A stretch of DNA of 64,000 nucleotides, taken from Gammaproteobacteria bacterium. Its GTDB lineage: Bacteria > Pseudomonadota > Gammaproteobacteria > Eutrophobiales > Eutrophobiaceae. Shown piece by piece: positions 25,125-38,164 of this stretch (the first letter of the stretch is position 1; each line of letters starts with the position of its first letter). The position numbers and the translations under genes are program-made. The stretch lies in contig CBDCDS010000003.1 in assembly GCA_965215365.1 (NCBI GenBank), positions 1,792,001 through 1,856,000 on the forward strand, in the 5' to 3' direction. Under the pieces are notes generated by a model. That model worked only from the letters and a program-made list of their open reading frames with translations, was not told the DNA's origin and did not search any database.

Positions 25125-25955
25125 ATGAATATATTTAACAAAGATCAGCCATTCAAGTTCGGCAAAGCGGCTTTTCCAAACGGCGGCCGTTATGGGCCGG
25201 TCACCCATGAACACCTGGACGTGACCGTGCTCCTGCAAGGAGAGGCGCGGGTGATTGTTGACGAGACCGAACACCGTTGTGTTGCCGGTTACTCGGTGTT
25301 TGCCTATTCCGAACAACGCTACGAAATGATTTTCCCCAAGGGAACCGGCCATTATGTCTATTGGTGCCACACCGGCGAGTTAGCCATGCCGCACCAGAAT
25401 AAAACCTGGCTTAAATCAATCCCGCGCGCAATTCCAACATCAAAATTGCTGGCGTTACTCATTGATCAGGGCATCGCCTTAGGACACAGTGAGGGGGTGA
25501 GCCTGGAGCGGCTGCGCAACTCCATGGGCGAGGCGGTTTTTAACGAGTATTTCCACCGGGCCAACCTCGAAGAGGAGGATCGCAAGTACCCGCGCGCGGT
25601 GGCGCGGGCCAAACATTATATCGACAACCATTTCACCACCCCCTGTGACCTGAACAAAATCGCCGATTTTGCCAACTTGAATCCGCGCTATCTGCTGCGC
25701 CTGTTCAAACAGCATATCGGCATTACCCCCACCCGCTATCTATGGCATTTGCGGGCCGAAAAAGGGGTTTACCTGCTGCACCAATCCCGACTGAACATCA
25801 ACCAGATAGCCGAGCAGTGCGGCTTCCAGTCGCCGCACCACTTCTCACGCCACATCAAGGAACACTACGGCAAATCCCCCACGCAACTACGTCACGTAAC
25901 AACGTCCCGCGATCCTTACCAGTTCAACCGCGACGTGCCTGATGTTCGTTATTGA
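25125..25955 (+). CDS. AraC family transcriptional regulator
   Basis: N-terminal cupin-like domain, C-terminal double HTH (YLLRLFKQHIGITP; IAEQCGFQSPHHFSR); divergent from Rieske pair. Confidence 0.92.
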   Translation: MNIFNKDQPFKFGKAAFPNGGRYGPVTHEHLDVTVLLQGEARVIVDETEHRCVAGYSVFAYSEQRYEMIFPKGTGHYVYWCHTGELAMPHQNKTWLKSIPRAIPTSKLLALLIDQGIALGHSEGVSLERLRNSMGEAVFNEYFHRANLEEEDRKYPRAVARAKHYIDNHFTTPCDLNKIADFANLNPRYLLRLFKQHIGITPTRYLWHLRAEKGVYLLHQSRLNINQIAEQCGFQSPHHFSRHIKEHYGKSPTQLRHVTTSRDPYQFNRDVPDVRY

Positions 25956-26011
25956 CCTCTGCTAGAATGACTGACAATCAGGCAACAAACAGGTCCCGGG
26001 ATGAAGCAACC

Positions 26012-29000
26012 ATGAACGCATCAATCGCGCAAAAAACCATCGACGCGGCGCTCAATAAAGCAGTTGATATGAACCCGCAGGAGACCGATGGTCAGTGGCT
26101 GGAAGTCATCACTGTGGAGGCCGGCCCATATATCAGAGAATGGGACCTCGCACAGTGCTGGCATTGGCAACAGTGGCCGCACCGGAAGGAGCACTTCCCG
26201 AACACCACCGGGCTGGATGTGGGCATAGACGCCGTCGCCAAGCGGCGCAGCGATGGGCGATACATTGCCATCCAGTGCAAGTCGCGTCAGCTTGACAGTG
26301 AGGGGTGCGGCGCGTCAATCAAAAGTGACGAGATAGCTAAATTTGCTGCTGCAGCCAATTCGGACTTCTGGGCCGAGCGCTGGGTCGTCACCAATGGTAA
26401 CAATCCGCTTGCCAGTGGCGCGGCGCAGTCAGCATCAATGCAAGGTAAGCCGCTCAAGCTCTTCAATATCACCAGCGACCTGCAGCGGCAGCGAGATGCG
26501 CATGCCGCAATGTCATATCAGCAGGAAAGCAAACAACAAAATCCCGATGATAACGATAAGGGGTTGCAGACAAAATCAGCCATGCAAGACGAAGCCGTCG
26601 CCACCAGCGTGCGCCTGCTCAAGGCACAAGTCGATTCAGACAGCGGCGGACTGCCCAAGGGCGAGGCCCGAGGGCGAATCATTCTGCCCTGCGGCACCGG
26701 CAAGACGCGCATATCACTACGCATCATAGAGAAGCTGACTCCGCCGGGCAAACTGTCCATCGTGCTGTGCCCGTCCATCGCGCTGGTAGCCCAGATCAGG
26801 CGCGAATACCTGCAACACGCGTCTGATGCAATAGACGTGTTGGCGGTCTGCTCGGATGCCACAGCCGGCTACGATCCCAAAAAGGAAGGAAGCCGTAATG
26901 CCACCCTGGATCCGACTGTCGATAACAGCAATGTCAGCGCCAGTGAGGTCAAGGGCAGGGTGACCACCGAGCCGGGAGAAATAGCCGACTGGATGCGCCA
27001 GCAGGTTTTCGATAACGGCGGCGCTCCTGCTAACAGCATCAGGGTTCTCATCGGCACTTACCAGAGCAGCGCCAAAGTATCGACAGCCCTGCTGTGCGCC
27101 GGCGTCAAGGCCTGTGTAATGATTGCCGACGAAGCGCACCGGACGGCAGGGCTGAAACGCAGAAACTCCCAATCCGCCGCTGCCAACGAGGCAGAACAGC
27201 GTCTGCGCGACTTCACTATCTGCCATGACCGCGAGCGATTTCCTGCTACGTACCGTGTCTATCAGACCGCTACGCCGCGTATTTACGATGGCAAGGCGGC
27301 CACTGACACCGGCAATCCCAACTGGATTGTCCGCTCCATGGACGATGAAACGACCTTCGGGGTGGAGCTGTACCGCAAGAGTTACCTGGAAGCCGTGCGT
27401 AACCGTTGGTTGTCGGACTATCGTATTATTGCCATGGGTATTAACGACCCCGAGGCGTATAAGACGGCGAACGCACTGGCAAAGGAGACCAAAAGTACCG
27501 GGCGTAACCAGTTGACCAGCACCGATTACCTGCGCGGGCTGGCATTCGCGCTGACGATGGGCGGCGCCACGCAGGGCAGGGAAGTGGACATACGCTCGGC
27601 TATCGCCTTTATGAACACGGTGGATAAGTCCAAAAACATGGCGGCAGACCTGCAGACTGAGACCGTGAAGGAATGGGTTTCACGCTGGCTCAGCGAAAAC
27701 ACAGACGGCAAGACCCTATCCGATTACAGCCTCGAACACCTGGACGCATCTTCCAACGCTGTGGCGCGTGACACCGCGCAGGGGCGACTGGCTGGCGCGG
27801 ACTCGGCGCATCCTCACGGCATCATCAATGTGGGCATATTCGGCGAGGGCACCGACTCGCCATCATTGAGCGCGGTAGCGTTTCTGGAAGCCCGCAAGAG
27901 CCCCATAGATGTCGTGCAAGCTGTTGGACGCGCGATGCGCACTGCACCTGGCAAGCAGCTGGGTTACATCATCTGTCCCATTCCGATTCCACCTGCTGCC
28001 GACCCCGAGAAGTGGCTGAGCACCAGCGCCCCCGAGGAAGGATGGCAGGAATTGGGACAAATACTGCTCGCGTTACGCGCCCACGACCAGCGTATTGAGG
28101 AGAACCTTGAGGAACTCCTGCACCTGTACATCCCCAAGCCACCGCCGGTAGCGCGCACCCTGGTGGCGCTCGCCACGGGAGCAGGTATGCGCATACAGTA
28201 TGGTGAGGTTAAAGGACCGCCCGGCGCCGCGCAGGCGGCGGTCGAGCAGGCGTTGGCAGGCAAGAGCCGCACCGCCGCGGGAATACAACGCTTGCACGAA
28301 CAGCCCGCCGCTGAGAGCGAGGCCGGGATATCAGGTGTGCGTGAAGAACCCGCCGACTACAGCAAGCCTGCCGCCGGCGACGCAGTGGAGTTCACGCAGC
28401 TCATTACCGGCAAGCAGCACGAGGACGGCGCCATTGAACTGCGCACCGACTCCGTAGCTCGCGACCAGCCGAAGGCCGGCGCGGCGCGAGGCATCGTGAA
28501 CATACAGAAAACCAAAGCCAAAGCCCGCAAGATGATCAATACCGGTGAAGGCGGCATTCGCTTGCCGGCGGGCAAGGCACGCAAGCCCGGCAAAACCGCC
28601 CGGCAACGAGCCGAGGAACGCGGCCAGCTGCTACTCAAGTTGAGCGGACTGGAAGACCATGGCCGCGCCATTAAGATGAACCTGTTGACCAAGTCCGGGC
28701 TGAGCGGCCAGCGCGTCATACGTGATTTGAATATACTGGAAGGCAGCGTCAACGAAGCGGCGCGTCACTTGCGCGCGGATGAGTTACAGCCGGCGCTGAA
28801 CCGCCACTTCGGGCTGGACCAGCTCAAGGAAACGAACAAGCAGCAGGCGGACGGCTGCACCACCGCCGCACTGTTGCTGATGAACGCCGCCATGCTGCAT
28901 CAGCGCGTCGCCAACGGCGGCTGGCTGCCGGGCATCAACGATCTTGCCAACATCAAAAATGAGCCTGAAGTGGTGCAAAAATTGAGCCGGGAATGGGAAC

Positions 29001-31866
29001 GCATTATGCGCCACGACTTCCGGCCGGTGCTGGAACCTGCGCTGGAAGCCATCTATGCCATTGAGGAAACCGGCAAAACAGCCGGGCTGCAACGGGCCTT
29101 ACACCACCTTGCCGCGGAGGCAGAGCGCATCGCAGAAACCTACGCAGACATGGGCGCCGACCATGCGGGGCCATTGTTTAACCGCGTCATGGGCAACCAG
29201 GCCTCAGACGGTGCCTTCTTTACCCGACCCGTGGCCGCGTCGCTGGCCGCCCGGCTGACGCTTGATGCCTGCGGCGACCAGGACTGGTCTGACCCCGAGG
29301 TATGGTGCGCGCACAAGACCGTCGATCTGGCCTGTGGCAGCGGCACGCTGCTGGCCGCCATGCTCACCGACATGAAGCGCCGGGCCAGCGCGCGCGGCGC
29401 GGACACAGAAGCCCTGACCGCCCTGCAAAAAATCGCAGTGGAAGACACCATCAAAGGGCTGGATATCAACCCGGTATCACTGCAACTGGCAGCCTCGCAA
29501 CTCACCGCCGGCAACCAGCGCGTCAGCTATCGGAGAATGGGATTGCACCTCATGCCCTACGGCCCCGACCGTCATGCCCCGGACCGAGTCTATGCCGGCA
29601 CGCTGGAACTATTGGGACAACGAGCTGTAGTGCAACGGCCGAACGAACTGGATCTGGGCGACGCCGCCATCGGTTCGCAAGCAACATGGGAGACAACGGA
29701 TGCCGCCGAACTGGAAGATGCCGTGGAGGCAGTGCAGGGCGCGCGTATTGTCATTATGAACCCGCCGTTTACCAACCGTTCAAAGATGGGCGAGAAGTTT
29801 CCTGCCGAGACGCAAAAGTCCCTGCGTCACCGCGCCGACCGGATGGAACAAATACTGGTACGCAACGATGAATTGTTGTCCGATTTTGTTGACAAGAACG
29901 CACTTGAACCATTGTTCACGGCTCTATCCGATAAGTGTGTGCAGGAGGAGAATGGCGTTCTGACAATGATCAATCCCACCGTTGCCCTTTGTGCACCGTC
30001 TGCACTGAACAAACGGCAAATCATGGCACAACGCTTTCATATCCACACCATACTGACATCGCACCAGCCTAAAAATGTCAACCTGAGCCAGCATACCGAC
30101 ATCAATGAAAGCATCGTGGTGATGCGACGGCATGACGGCAATAAACCGCGAACTCGGTTCATCAGCCTCGATAGATTGCCCGCCGATGAAAGTGAAGTTG
30201 CCGAGTTTCATCAATCCTTACTGAACTGCAAGAAAGGATTGATCCCCAACGGATGGGGGGAGGTTTCCTATTGGCCCGCGAGCCGCATGGGGGCTGGCGA
30301 TTGGACGGCCGCTATCTGGCGCTCCTCGGAGTTGGCGGAAGCCGCGTACCAGTTCGCCAATCACGAGTCACTTCTGTCAATGGAGACGCAGGACATGGTG
30401 CCGTCCGCGGTGTTAAGTGGGGGCGGACAGATGCGTGATTTTGGACAAGCCGAAATTGATGCGTTAGGTGTTTTTCCTGTCCTGTATTCCAAGAGCGCGG
30501 AGATCCAGCGGACCATTCTAGGCGTACCCGATCAGCACTGGGCACCAAGAAGACATGTTCCACGCACTGAGTGGGTTAAGGTGCCTGGAATCGACGATCT
30601 TCAACACCCTCTCACTGCTGGGCGTATCGTCCCGTCAGCCTCCTACCTGTTAGTGACAAGCGGCCAAAACTCCGCCACAGGTCGCCTAACCCAAGTTTAA
30701 CATTTTTCGCCTGTTGGGGCGGGAAATCGGGGTAATTTTGGCAGGTTTTCGGTTGTAAGTCATTGATTTATTATGGTGGTGGTGGCGGGAGGCAGCAATG
30801 TAGTGCCATAATCTTTATTTTTCTGTTGACACACCTTGTCATCGCCGGTAGGCTGTCCCGTATGTTCATCCGCCGCACCAAAACCCGTACCACCGCCACC
30901 TTCCGCCGGGACGACGGGCGCACCCTGCATGTGCGTAAGGCTACCCTCGCCGAACCGCCCCAGCAGGCACTCTACGAGGCACTCGGTATCAGCACCGCAC
31001 CGGGAGGAGTCCGAAAGAACATCGTCTGAGCCCGGCAACACGTATTCCAGTACCCACTTGTAGTGCCACTCGGCCCGCCAGAACTGCGTAACCGGCTGAT
31101 ATACAACAAGTTCGTTCAGACCTATGTTAAACTTGGGCTAACGGCTGTAGCGCAGCAGAAGCTATGTGTGGGCACCGGCTGGCTTCCCGTGCCGGGCGTG
31201 ACACTGCAACAAGCAAAGGCGCTCGCTGTCTTCCTTAACTCGACACCGGGGCGGCTACAACTCATGCGGAATGCTGGCAAAAATATAACATATCCCCAAT
31301 ACAATCCGGCAGCCTCGAAAGTCGTTCGCGTACCCAACGTTACGGATGAGCGCACTATCGAGTGGCTCGCGCGCTGCTGGGAACAGACAACCGAAACCGA
31401 AGTCCCCCAATACCGCGACGGCGACTGCGAAGTGCGCCGCCTGTGGGATGAGGCCGTCGCCGAGGCCTTATGCTGGGATGCCGCCGAGCTTGAACGCTTG
31501 CGCCGGTTGCTGCACGCCGAACCCCACGTGCGCGGTTTGGGCTACGGGCAGTACGCCGATGCAGTGGAGCTCGACCCCGCAGACCGTCAACGCTTCACAG
31601 AACTCGCCGACCGCTGGGAAATGGAAACCATGCTCGAGTCCAATACAGCACATGCGGTCGAACATCCGGCGCACAAGGAAATCATCAGCATGGGCGAATC
31701 GGTAGTGCCCCTGATACTGGAACGGATGCGAGGAGAGAGGGGGCACTGGTTTTTCGCCTTACGCGCCATCACAGGAGACAATCCTGTGAAGCCAGCCGAC
31801 AGAGGCAAGGTCGCAGTCATGGAGCAGGCCTGGCTGCAGTGGGGCGAAGTCAATGGATACGTCTGA
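26012..31866 (+). pseudogene. Type ISP-like restriction-modification enzyme (Mrr-like nuclease + SF2 helicase + N6-adenine MTase + TRD) interrupted by a mini-IS
   Basis: DVGIDAVA...IAIQCK; LPCGTGKT, DEAH, TATP, QAVGRAMR; DLACGSGT, MNPPF; removing 30690-31141 rejoins TGRL-TAVAQQ in frame with ORF 31063..31866. Confidence 0.88.
30690..31137 (+). mobile_element. 448-bp internally deleted IS1634-like element
   Basis: 14-bp TIR CCCAAGTTTAACAT / ATGTTAAACTTGGG; CTAA duplicated at 30686-30689 and 31138-31141; mini-ORF 30862-31029 fuses MFIRRTKTR to DGRTLHVRKAT..EP.Q..LY.ALGI transposase ends. Confidence 0.88.
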
Positions 31867-33371: not shown

Positions 33372-34451
33372 AGGGTGTCAACATCTACCAACTATACACG
33401 ATCTCCCCACCCAGCATGCGCGGCGTATTGGGCACCAGGGTGTGCCAGCCGGAGTTCCTGAAGTCGAAGGTCTGGATGCGATAGGCGGTGTTGGACAGGT
33501 TTTTGCCCCAGAACGCGAGTTCCAGGCTGTCGTCCGCGGAAAACCAGGACACGCGCGCGCCTGCCAGCCAGTGGCTCTTGGCGCGCACATCGCTGCGGTT
33601 TTCTATGGTGTGGAACACCTCGTCGGTCCAGCTCCAGTTGAAAGAGGCGGCGATCTTGCCGCCCATCAGGGCCGGCGTCGGCCATTCGTAGCGCGCCAGA
33701 CCGGTGAACTGCCATTCCGGCGAATACACATTGCTGTTGCCGGTCAGGTCTTCCCCGGTGATGGGGCGTCCGAAGGTACCGAATTGTGTATCTAGGTGGC
33801 TCAGTCCGAACAGCAGCTCCATGCGCTCCAGCGGACTGAGCAGGAATTCCAATTCGCCGCCGTAATAATCAGCCTGGGGCGCGTTGCCGATCACGAATAT
33901 CGGGCCGAACGCGCCCTGGGTCTGGTCGAACACCTGCAAGTCCTCGTAGTCATAGTAGAACGCCGCGGCGTTGAGCCGCGCGCGTCCATCCCACCAGGTG
34001 GACTTGAAGCCACCTTCCACCGCCAGTAGTGTTTCGTCTTCATAGATGTTGAATTCCAGCGGATCTGCAAAACCGACGTTGATGCCGCCACTTTTGTAAC
34101 AGGTGCCGACGCTGGCATACACCAGCCAGTCGTCGTTGGGGGTATAGTCAATGTTCACCTTCCAGAATACATCCTCATAGGTCCGGGCGCCGCTGCTACC
34201 CGGGTCAAATGGCACCTGGGGGATGGGCGGCACGAAATCATTCGGATCAGGGTGGGTGCTGCGATGCCTCAGATCAATCTCATCCCGGGTGTAACGCAAC
34301 CCGACGCTGACCTTCCACCGTTCAGTAAACTGGTAGCCGGCATTGGCGAACACCGCCAGGGATTCCTGATTCTGGTCGAACCACTGAAACGTGGAGCCAA
34401 AAGTTCGGAACTGGTATTCGTTGTACGAATCCAGCTTATCTTTGGCAGTAA

Positions 34452-35969
34452 CTACTCGCCCCCCTTACCCTGATCTCTTGTTCTGATCTGGTTTTTCTTA
34501 ACCGTTTTATTTTTGAGCGGTTTTTCCACCATGGTGGCGGCGTCTCCCTTGAGTGCTATCTCGATGGCGGCGAGGGGATTGTAGCCCTTCAGGGTCATAG
34601 ACTGCAAGTAGCTGGAGATGCGGCAGTAGGTGTCGGCGTAGGCGGTGGTTCGGAAGCAGCCGGAGACTTTTTGTTTGACTTTAGCCATACGGATATCGCG
34701 TTCGGCGCGGTTGTTGGTGAACGGCACGTTGGGGTCGCGGGCGAAGCGGAGGACTTCGGTTTCGTACTTGACGAGGGCATCATGGAGGTTTTGTGCCTCA
34801 CATTGGGCAATCCGTCCGCGTTGGCCGGTGAGCCGTTTCGGGGGTGTGGGGAGTTCCCGTTTGGCTTGTGTCAGGATAGTCCGGTAGCGGGTGCGCAGGG
34901 ACTGGTAGTCGGTCTCGCTGAGTGCCTTGTTTTTATGTGTGCGCACCTGTCGGCAGGTCTTGAGCAGGAGGCGGCTCATACGTTGGGCCCAGGCATGGCC
35001 GTGGGCGTCCTCGATAAAGGCCAAGTTACGCAACAGGTGACTGCCGCACAGGGCATGCTCGCAGTTGTCATAGGCGAAGTAGCTGGCCCAGCGGTCGTGC
35101 ACGAGAACACCGCCGTAGCGGGGGACGATGCCGATGTCCTTGAGGGCGTCCCCGCCCCGCTTGCGGTGGCAGTGTTTCAGTACCAGGTTCCCGGCACTGG
35201 TGCTGTGCAGCCAGTGTTGTGTGCGGTCGATGCGCAAGGAGGTCTCATCGGCGTGCAGCACGGGCTCTGTGAGCAGGCGGGCGATAGCCGCCCGCTCCCA
35301 CCCGGCCAGGGCCTCATGCACCCGCGTGAGCCAGGCCAGTAAGGTCGCCTCGGCGACGGCGCGCCCGGTCAGTGCATGAAGTGTCTGCGCCGTACGTTTG
35401 AGCGAGAGCATTTGGGCCGTTAACAGGTGCGTGGCGAAAGCCACGATGCCAGGGCCGTATTGTAAAGGCCCCGGCATGTCATCGGGAAACGCCCCGTGGG
35501 TCTCAGTGCCACAGCGCGGACAGGTTTTTATCTCGGCGTCAATGGTCAACTCGGTCGTCTCGAAGACTATATCGACCTTGACTCGTCGCACATGGCCGGT
35601 GGGGGCGGTGCCTTTGAGATCATGCCCGCAGGCCCGGCAGCCGGTCACGGGCACCGTGCGGGTCTGAGCCACCACGCGCCGGGACGCGCTGGGCACCGTC
35701 CCGGTCTGCGGCCCCTTGCCCTGCTTGCCGGGCCGTGTGCGCGCACTGTCATCGGGGTCGGTGCGGGAACTGGGCAGGCTGGAGTTGTGCGCCCCCTTCG
35801 GTGTGGTCTTCTCTAAGAACACCGCCAGCAGCAACTCGAATAGCAGCAACATCGACTCGAACAGCGCACGCCCTTCGGGACTCAGCGCGCCGTCGGCGCA
35901 CAACGCCTTAAAACGCATTCGGATGGCCTCGAACTCCGCACGCAATGAGGCCTTGTTCACCGTGGCCAT
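34452..35969 (-). CDS. IS66 family transposase (TnpC-like)
   Basis: NSSLPSS, CRACG/CPRCG zinc finger, VLHADET, VHDRWASY, LCGSHLLRNL, PFTNNRAERDIRMAKVKQKVSGCFR. Confidence 0.93.
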   Translation of the reverse strand: MATVNKASLRAEFEAIRMRFKALCADGALSPEGRALFESMLLLFELLLAVFLEKTTPKGAHNSSLPSSRTDPDDSARTRPGKQGKGPQTGTVPSASRRVVAQTRTVPVTGCRACGHDLKGTAPTGHVRRVKVDIVFETTELTIDAEIKTCPRCGTETHGAFPDDMPGPLQYGPGIVAFATHLLTAQMLSLKRTAQTLHALTGRAVAEATLLAWLTRVHEALAGWERAAIARLLTEPVLHADETSLRIDRTQHWLHSTSAGNLVLKHCHRKRGGDALKDIGIVPRYGGVLVHDRWASYFAYDNCEHALCGSHLLRNLAFIEDAHGHAWAQRMSRLLLKTCRQVRTHKNKALSETDYQSLRTRYRTILTQAKRELPTPPKRLTGQRGRIAQCEAQNLHDALVKYETEVLRFARDPNVPFTNNRAERDIRMAKVKQKVSGCFRTTAYADTYCRISSYLQSMTLKGYNPLAAIEIALKGDAATMVEKPLKNKTVKKNQIRTRDQGKGGE

Positions 35970-36637
35970 GTGCACTGTGCCTCCACCGCCATCATCGCCG
36001 CCAGCACCGCCAGCCGCTCGGCCGGGGGCAAGTCACGATAACGCCGCCCCCAGTTCTCAGCCTTGCGCTTGACCTGCTGGCGGTGCGTGAAGTTGCGCCC
36101 CGCATAGCGCACCCAGTGCACCCGGTCCGGCACAAAATTGAACCAGACCCGCTCGGTCACCACCCCGCCCTGATTCATCACCTGCAAGGACACACTGCGC
36201 CAGCCCGCCAGCACCTCATCATACAAGGCCGAAGGATACCCCGACACCATCACCGCACAGGGCAGCCCCTGCAGTAACGCCAGCAGCGCCTCATGGTCTG
36301 AGTCCTCGTAGTCATACCGGTAACGGTGCCGTGACTTGCGCGTGCTGTGCAGGTAGGGCGGGTCGCTGTACACCAACTCCGTGCCGTCAAACGGAAAAGT
36401 CGCCAACCAGCGGTGACAACACCCCTGCACCAACTCCACCGGATACCCACACGTAAACCCCGCCAACGCCCGCACATCAAGATCAATCCCAATGTTGCGC
36501 AACGCCGCCGGCTTGCGCTGCATAATCGCCCCGCCGCCTAAGTGTGTCTCAATGTACACACTGTGCGGCGGCATCATCGCAATGAGCGGCTGGCACAGAC
36601 CCGTCGTGGCTTTCGACCCTCGGTACGCATTCCCCAT
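35957..36637 (-). CDS. Dam-like (D12 class) N6-adenine DNA methyltransferase
   Basis: Y.GSK, YIETHLGGGAI (motif I variant), YSDPPY (motif IV), VMVSGY, TERVWFNF. Confidence 0.85.
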   Translation of the reverse strand: MGNAYRGSKATTGLCQPLIAMMPPHSVYIETHLGGGAIMQRKPAALRNIGIDLDVRALAGFTCGYPVELVQGCCHRWLATFPFDGTELVYSDPPYLHSTRKSRHRYRYDYEDSDHEALLALLQGLPCAVMVSGYPSALYDEVLAGWRSVSLQVMNQGGVVTERVWFNFVPDRVHWVRYAGRNFTHRQQVKRKAENWGRRYRDLPPAERLAVLAAMMAVEAQCTWPR

Positions 36638-36644
36638 GACGACC

Positions 36645-36673
36645 AACATAACGCCATGACGCTATGTTGTCAA
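36645..36673 (-). promoter_or_regulatory. sigma70 promoter of IS-borne MTase/transposase, probably leaderless
   Basis: Minus strand TTGACA (36673-36668), 17 bp, TATGTT (36650-36645), ATG 7 nt later with no SD. Confidence 0.65.
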
Positions 36674-38065
36674 GGACGCCTTGACAAAAAATTCAGTAGA
36701 ATTAGAGGGAGGGGGCGAGTAGTTACCTTTGGCATAATAAAAGCCCAGCAGCCAGTCAGTCGGGCCGCCCGTGTTCGACGCGGCGCGCAACTCCTGTGAC
36801 CAGCCGTCGGTCTCGTGGCGATAAAAATTGTGCGTGAGCAGGTACGGAGAACCGTCTTCCTCACCAGGCAGGTAGCGTTGGAACTTGTTATAGGCGCTGA
36901 TGGAGGTGATAGTGAAATTCTCCAGATCCCACTCCAAACGCAAGGTCGTGCCGATGGTTTCATAATCTGCTTCGGCTTGCAAGTCGAAATCGCCGGCGGT
37001 GGGGTCGCCGCGTTCTTCCACGCCGTCCGGGTCGCGGTAGCCGAAGAAATTGACGCAGTCATCTCGTAAGGTTGCATCACACAGCTCGAAGGTTTCGGCA
37101 AAGGTTACGGGGTCAAACTCGTAAGTGCCCGGCACTGCCACGCCGGCATGCTGATAGCTGTAGGCATCGGAATGATCCTGGGAACCGTTCACCGACCAGA
37201 GTATCTGCACATTGTCCTGCGGCGTCCATTCCAGCAGGCCGCGCCAGGAATAAAAATCTACTGCATTGAAGTTATCGCCGCCAACCGTGCCCGGCAGGTC
37301 CGTCCTGCCCTTCATCCAGCCACCGCCGTGGCTGTAGGTGCCGGCGATGCGCCCGGCCAGGGTGTCGGTGAGGGGGCCGGACACGGCGCCTTCTAACTGT
37401 ACCGCGTCATAGCTGCCGTAACCGGCCTTGGTATAGCCGGAAAACTCCTGCGTGGGCTTGGCGGTGATGTAATTGATGGCGCCGCCGGTGGCGTTGCGGC
37501 CGTGCAAGGTGCCCTGGGGGCCGCGCAATACCTCAATCCGTTCTAGGTCGAAGGTTTGCATGGTGTGCATGAACGTATTGTGCAGATAGACCTCATCCAC
37601 ATAGACACCCACCGTGGTTTGCGTGTTGGCGGCAAAATCGACTGCGCCCGACCCGCGTATGAATGATTTGGCCTGCTGGTTGCCGGAGGGCGGTGCGATC
37701 ACCACGCCGGGCACGTATTGTCCCAAGTCGTTACTGCTGGTTAGCCCGACATCGCGCAGCACCTCCCTGGAAAATGCCGATACTGACAAGCTCACGTCCT
37801 GCAGGCTTTCTTCTCGTTTGCGCGCGATCACAATCACTTCTTCGAGCAGATCGGCCGCTACCGGTGCCGGTGCCAGCAACGCGGCTACGAGCAGTAACAA
37901 AATGGTGCTGGAATGCATAGTACGAAATTTGAAGTTGGGCATGGGGCCTCCTCTACTAATAGTTGCGCTACCGGAGTAACGCTGCCGGATGTTCCCATGA
38001 TCGACGAAAACGAACAATGAGTAAATCTATCCAGGTAACCAACCTGTATCTTAAATTCACTTTTC

Positions 38066-38164
38066 GTAACTACTCGCTCCCCGTTTGTCATTCCCGCTCC
38101 CCTCATCTTCACTCATTGCGTCCCCCCCTGGAAGCAATGAGTGAAGATGAGGGGGAGTAGTTAC
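38066..38164. mobile_element. 99-bp MITE with IS66-type ends
   Basis: GTAACTACTC...GAGTAGTTAC ends shared with the IS at 34448; flanks CACTTTTC / CACCTTTC (7/8 match); long internal hairpin. Confidence 0.85.

Follow-up and report, generated by a model that had tools for sequence, protein, structure and literature searches.

A 64,000-nt stretch of contig CBDCDS010000003.1 from a gammaproteobacterial genome (assembly GCA_965215365.1, positions 1,792,001 to 1,856,000; the whole stretch is called the window below) carries at 34448-36726 a 2279-bp insertion sequence (IS) of the IS66 family with an ISBst12-type transposase. Both of its genes lie on the minus strand: open reading frame 1 (ORF1; 35957-36637, 226 aa), a Upf31-family gene whose product has an adenine methyltransferase core and a two-helix C-terminal domain, and tnpC (34452-35969, 505 aa), which encodes the IS66-family DDE transposase. 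The likeness of ORF1 to the plasmid protein Upf31 and a conserved dyad in its promoter suggest that ORF1 is more likely the element's own off-switch than an ordinary DNA methylase, and we consider it probable that ORF1, by repressing its own orf1-tnpC operon, holds transposition back. The whole would then be an active single-transposase IS66 element that has its controls in a portable cassette of promoter, dyad operator and Upf31-family gene. A preliminary description of this DNA, made from the sequence alone, had named regulation of transposition among several possible roles of the gene; this is the role with the best support.

ORF1 resembles the autorepressor Upf31

Over 220 aa, ORF1 shares 44% identity (E 1e-66) with the Upf31 protein of pBP136, which has been tested experimentally. 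Searches of plasmids and phages returned full-length homologues at 38-53% identity, including Upf31 of IncP-1beta plasmids and also proteins of P2-like phages. In the accessible text of the study by Elg et al. (2025, PMC11997246), Upf31 has no detectable methylase activity (no GATC methylation with DpnI/MboI and no signal in sequencing by the single-molecule real-time (SMRT) method) and represses its own promoter, with a reporter falling from 4.76 to 0.09 units; the substitutions Y180A, F185A and W198A each abolish this repression. The counterparts of these residues in ORF1 are Y178, F183 and W196, and the homology runs over the full length including the C-terminal domain, with the same length and domain layout as in Upf31 of pBP136 and R751, which places ORF1 in the Upf31 family. 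Upf31 also keeps the DPPY motif, so that DPPY in ORF1 is no proof of activity, since its methylation-negative relative has it too. The motif order of Upf31 was called beta by Elg et al. (PMC11997246, same text); in our alignments, motif I precedes motif IV, as in Dam.

The resemblance extends to the promoter. Inverted repeats of CAGCATCG are proposed as the Upf31 operator in the same text of Elg et al. (PMC11997246), and an inverted repeat of the CAGCATCG type is present in the ORF1 promoter as an 8-10-8 dyad, its left half-site matching at 6/8 positions. At both genes the dyad begins within the TTGACA box. The two systems differ in that the half-site core is ATAG at ORF1 and ATCG at Upf31, that ORF1 heads a transposase operon within an IS, and that no KorB partner is known for ORF1.

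A conserved dyad covers the ORF1 promoter

The preliminary description had placed a promoter (TTGACA-17-TATGTT) directly before the methyltransferase gene. We found the same promoter, of sigma70 type, at 36645-36673 (minus strand), with the ORF1 ATG 7 nt after the -10 box; it was the only promoter match found ahead of ORF1 and tnpC (shuffle mean 0.6). The putative operator (36644-36669, minus strand) is an 8-10-8 dyad with the core ATAG-N10-[C/T]TAT that overlaps the -35 box, the spacer and the -10 box and is laid out like the operator proposed for Upf31. To compare relatives, the promoter in the window and 16 distinct upstream regions, some of them close kin, were aligned as 17 rows by anchoring on the TTGAC...TA hexamers only, not on the dyad; rows with a disrupted promoter (L011 and L020) or a 5'-truncated ORF1 (L025, L075 and L078) and duplicates were omitted. 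The ATAG of the spacer is invariant (17/17) and its mirrored C is kept in 15/17 rows; agreement at the ten intervening bases is 7-11/17.

A dyad matrix was built from the IS promoters alone and then scanned on non-IS homologues, with p values taken against shuffles. The 8-10-8 dyad was found upstream of 7/13 such homologues from plasmids, phages and genomes (p <= 0.015; three of the seven are of the same IncP-1beta type), and other half-site spacings scored lower. Scores were 10.0-22.7 for the non-IS positives and 12-24 for the IS rows, the latter being in-sample. At the non-IS homologues ATAG/CTAT becomes ATCG/CGAT, a change made on both sides of the dyad. One of the six scan-negative homologues (L163) has a dyad that can be seen by eye just outside the region scanned. 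In the host genome, 16/17 full dyad matches lie inside copies of the element; with only one weak dyad elsewhere, a role for ORF1 as a host-wide regulator was rejected.

Two further features of this region were revised. The palindrome noted around the -35 box in the preliminary description is in the sequence (36667-36687), but the inverted TGTCAA upstream of -35 occurs in 0/16 related promoters; the palindrome is thus a local feature and was rejected as a control site. Similarly, the leaderless start suggested there for ORF1 probably applies to the clade of the window element, but it was found in 4/17 promoters only, the other 13 having leaders of 26-44 nt, and was rejected as a family trait. 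When 12 of the longer leaders were folded, most placed a GGGAG-type ribosome site within a hairpin (no shuffle control was run); z-scores were between -1.2 and +0.7 in another folding, in which the segments started too late, and we make no claim on leader hairpins.

Dyads also accompany upf31-like genes elsewhere. On a Xanthomonas plasmid (NZ_CP101720.1), full dyads lie at positions 2920 and 3665 of the locus (L081), before and directly after the gene. On two other plasmids (L186 and L192), a gene annotated as 8-oxoguanine DNA glycosylase stands behind an upf31-like gene that has a dyad and a very short leader; other cargo, too, may therefore be under the control of the promoter-operator-upf31-like cassette.

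The fold of ORF1 and its missing recognition region

The DPPY motif lies at residues 92-95 of ORF1. Sequence profiles place the protein only loosely: against PF02086 the match is weak, centred on DPPY and below the Pfam cut-off (E 0.0016), no other family matched, and the score for TIGR00571 is likewise below cut-off. A single-sequence search of PDB with ORF1 gave no match, and Dam and DpnM were reached through profile and fold comparison. In the AlphaFold model (predicted local distance difference test score, pLDDT, 91), residues 3-170 match DpnM, Dam and T4 Dam (VIA Z 16.4-16.7; also with Foldseek), the best match having a VIA Z of 16.7 and a root-mean-square deviation of 3.2 A over 154 aligned residues. 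The C-terminal two-helix domain (residues 183-221) lies outside the Dam alignments.

The target-recognition domain (TRD) of alpha-class adenine methyltransferases sits between motifs III and IV. In the profile alignment, about 85-90 residues are absent from ORF1 at this place: positions 65-83 of the ORF1 profile (18 positions) span residues 76-184 of DpnM (108 residues), and 16 positions span 100 residues of E. coli Dam. By this alignment ORF1 lacks the TRD region. It thus shares with the alpha-class enzymes Dam, T4 Dam and DpnM (PF02086) the catalytic core fold, with the S-adenosylmethionine (SAM) motif I ahead of the DPPY motif IV, and differs from them in being shorter between motifs III and IV and in adding the two-helix domain. 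The ratio of non-synonymous to synonymous substitution rates (dN/dS) is 0.11-0.33 in nine pairs, as expected of a gene under purifying selection. The database name of the protein is 'DNA methylase', and its homologues number 2985 at the 90% level.

The cassette is shared by unrelated transposases

ORF1 loci were scanned using one genome per species. This gave 78 loci; they come from 16 assemblies, one of which contributed 50. The assemblies are metagenome-assembled genomes of Gammaproteobacteria, Alphaproteobacteria and Chloroflexota, some with lineage names that we take to be sponge-associated. A transposase lies within 900 nt downstream of ORF1 in 71/78 loci (a contig edge intervenes in two, and none was found in five). 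Together with the dN/dS values, this bears out the view of the preliminary description that the gene is an integral part of the element.

The transposases behind ORF1 fall into four lineages, namely the window type, two IS66 lineages (33% and 23% identity) and a DDE_Tnp_1 type, and in all four ORF1 is placed tight against the transposase start. Across these lineages, whose transposases are 23-33% identical or unrelated, ORF1 remains 65-78% identical; we therefore conclude that the cassette has been exchanged between elements. The DDE_Tnp_1 case (L009:3845-6065) is a complete IS of 2221 bp; its 16-bp terminal inverted repeats (TIRs) are different, its target-site duplication (TSD) measures 9 bp, and it carries the same promoter-operator-ORF1 cassette. 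The unit at another locus (L069:3853-5067) is 1215 bp long; it has IS66 TIRs, a perfect TSD and ORF1, but no TnpC match. Outside these assemblies, the IS-type ORF1 clade was not found among 400 other genomes of a phylum sample, two of which have full-length ORF1 homologues at 43% identity.

Sister elements without the gene are common. ORF1 was found in 0/80 metagenome loci having a TnpC at 47-55% identity, many of them on short contigs. A TIR of the same type stands 125-272 nt before tnpC in 49/75 of these sisters, which leaves no room for ORF1, and the best dyad score among 50 loci was 8.3 (median -0.3). Gene and dyad are jointly present or absent. Most of the sister left ends (L082-L161) have a TTGAC(A) box about 25-55 nt inside the left repeat and no dyad. 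In a quick TnpC tree (midpoint-rooted, 54 rows, with every second ORF1-less metagenome row and leaving out L072 and L009), elements with and without ORF1 occur in each of two deep TnpC clades.

Autorepression as the probable role of ORF1

In the mechanism that we favour, one transcript from the left-end promoter would span ORF1 and tnpC. ORF1 would dimerise via its C-terminal helices and, as a dimer, bind the 8-10-8 dyad over the -35 and -10 boxes, occluding RNA polymerase and turning both genes off, in the manner suggested by Upf31. Since every copy of the element has the same operator, diffusible ORF1 could repress all copies in trans: a naïve cell would see a burst of transposase, which would be damped as copies accumulate.

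Several observations weigh against this mechanism. The catalytic and SAM motifs are near-invariant in the homologues (DPP in 59/59, Y95 in 57/59, G34 in 59/59 and E30 in 56/59), which argues against a simply dead enzyme, as such a protein need not keep them. The Upf31 operator has been proposed rather than mapped, according to the text of Elg et al. (PMC11997246) used here, and the right half-site at the pBP136 promoter has two mismatches. In the element, part of the conservation of the right half-site is explained by the promoter, whose -10 box it overlaps; and the scan found no dyad at 6/13 non-IS homologues, including both P2-like phages. Co-transcription of tnpC with ORF1 is itself inferred. 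Finally, with 13 near-identical copies in this genome and 50 loci in one other assembly, any repression has been no bar to large bursts, and any brake must be leaky.

Conservation of the active site could mean that ORF1 is instead an active but very narrow methylase that marks the adenines of its own operator, or of single-stranded or circular intermediates, as a methylation switch with or without repression. Motifs I and IV stay near-invariant across homologues of 36-90% identity, the invariant ATAG/CTAT core contains adenines, and the SMRT test of Upf31, made on an expression vector in E. coli ER2796 (PMC11997246), would presumably miss a 26-bp bipartite or single-strand target. That test nonetheless detected no Upf31 methylation, and the mutations that abolish Upf31 repression lie outside the catalytic domain, no DPPY mutant being reported in the accessible text (PMC11997246); we regard such a switch as unlikely. 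As the preliminary description also envisaged, ORF1 could be an ordinary DNA methylase, Dam-like or non-specific, that protects the element against restriction or alters the methylome of the host. Such an enzyme would suit the Dam/DpnM fold, the intact DPPY and the database name, the homologues on plasmids and P2-like phages, and the avoidance of many 6-bp palindromes by the host. We regard this as very unlikely, given that the TRD region is missing, that Upf31 with its DPPY showed neither GATC protection nor an SMRT signal (PMC11997246, same text), and that an IS moving within one genome would presumably gain little from protection against restriction.

Alternatively, ORF1 and its promoter could be a hitch-hiking cassette, which gives the element no more than a strong promoter and the delivery of ribosomes to tnpC, while autoregulation serves the cassette and has little effect on transposition. 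Such a passenger would explain why same-TIR sisters without ORF1 are common, why elements of both kinds occur in both deep TnpC clades, and how the 1215-bp unit (L069) can have TIRs, a TSD and ORF1 without a TnpC match. It is harder to reconcile with the apparent purifying selection on ORF1 and with its constant position, tight at the transposase start in four lineages; if the shared transcript is real, repression would reach tnpC in any case. We consider this explanation quite improbable, and prefer autorepression of the orf1-tnpC operon.

More speculatively, a methyltransferase-fold repressor and its operator may form a copy-number throttle of the plug-in kind, recruited repeatedly by unrelated IS families, which would allow a burst in a new host followed by repression of all copies in trans; the SAM/adenine pocket might then tie transposition to the state of the cell, through ligand sensing or methylation of the element's own operator. 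We put this forward as a tentative proposal, with the balance of probability somewhat against it. To our knowledge, most simple IS lack a dedicated transcriptional repressor gene, and little is known of how ISBst12-type IS66 elements are controlled. If autorepression is correct, a negative-feedback module derived from a methylase fold is carried by IS and exchanged between IS families and plasmids, and many genes annotated as 'DNA adenine methylase', among the homologues counted above, may be regulators. The element also offers a sharp test of self-limitation by a high-copy IS, and a second natural system, with a well-defined putative operator, for the question of the target of Upf31 and its retained active site.

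Structure, family and copies of the element

As the preliminary description had it, the element has exact TIRs and an 8-bp TSD and contains only two ORFs, the first with DPPY. The 16-nt repeats (IRR, 34448-34463, containing the tnpC stop codon; IRL, 36711-36726) are 100% complementary, and the same 8 bp stand at the right (34440-34447) and left (36727-36734) ends. The insertion splits a TonB-dependent receptor gene of the host (33385-38017, minus strand): in silico removal of the element and one TSD copy restores a single open frame of 782 codons, and the two halves match the Plug and TonB-barrel families in profile searches. TnpC has the motifs D241, D292 and E423 and CxxC pairs at 111 and 150, and matches PF03050 (E 2e-42) and NF033517 (249 bits, above the cut-off of 180). 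The reported overlap of ORF1 (36637-35957) and tnpC (35969-34452) amounts to 13 nt here but is clade-specific; in most relatives the ORF1 stop lies a few nt 5' of the transposase start.

A TnpC-type DDE transposase, TIRs beginning GTAA and an 8-bp target duplication assign the element to IS66, although the classical tnpA-tnpB-tnpC layout is absent, ORF1 being the sole ORF upstream of tnpC. The ISBst12 group comprises single-ORF IS66 elements without tnpA/tnpB, e.g. ISBst12 and ISDge4, in the portion of PMC12898284 available. The window element shares with this group (ISDge4, PMC12898284) a lone TnpC-type DDE transposase without tnpA/tnpB, GTAACT-type TIRs and 8-bp direct repeats, and differs in that a further conserved gene, preceded by a promoter and putative operator of its own, lies between IRL and tnpC; having two ORFs instead of one, it is a variant of the group. 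The preliminary description had ORF1 occupying the tnpA/tnpB position. We interpret ORF1 as an addition and not a replacement, because the closest transposases come from ISBst12-type elements with a single ORF, in which tnpA and tnpB are absent. Transporter IS, in the available text of PMC9330008, likewise have an extra gene between the TIRs of one IS; here, the additional gene seems to regulate its own element and is met again, together with its operator, in unrelated IS. Literature searches, whose scope did not take in ISfinder or the main IS66 reviews, found no paper describing an IS layout with a Upf31-type gene. Methylase passengers reportedly occur in other IS families (reviews of Siguier and Chandler). 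The parts of the present element are known: ISBst12-type IS66, transporter IS and Upf31.

The search for further two-gene copies that the preliminary description proposed gave 13 full-length copies in the 2.73-Mb host genome at 99.9-100% identity, besides truncated and interrupted ones. ORF1 is intact in every full copy, in two variants that differ by one substitution. Ten of the 13 have their own perfect 8-bp TSD, one has none, and the other two full copies were mobilised as parts of 3.6-kb composites, both of which are flanked by a perfect 8-bp TSD. With 13 full-length copies, most with their own TSDs, neither chance nor an assembly artefact accounts for the element; it is a real IS, recently multiplying and active. 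In three runs, the summed depth of the element exceeded that of its flanks about 13-24 times. No end-to-end joint of a circular form was seen in the contigs of four runs, although contigs cannot exclude one.

The composites, at C3:1921378-1924986 and C1:65622-69229 of the host genome (donor at C3:879837-883439), consist of the IS, a captured 1.3-kb segment containing an open frame of about 278 codons, and an end like that of a miniature inverted-repeat transposable element (MITE). Short non-coding elements of 99-344 bp that share this TIR, one of them flanked by a perfect 8-bp TSD, lie at 38066-38164 and from 50653 onward in the window and at C1:60047-60390 and C3:130224-130399 of the host genome; they are probably MITEs mobilised by the TnpC of the element. 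The internal palindromes of some resemble, we presume, REP/dRS3-type repeats. A 175-bp derivative (C3:584454-584628) keeps the left end together with promoter, operator and the beginning of ORF1, is closed by a second left-end repeat, and could act as a titrator of the repressor.

In the host genome, several 6-bp palindromes are strongly avoided (observed/expected 0.09-0.4), and GATC is mildly depleted (0.73). A 1582-aa Mrr-like nuclease/helicase/methylase fusion is encoded at 25952-30700 of the window (plus strand), its 3' end cut by an apparent transposase remnant (30763-31029).

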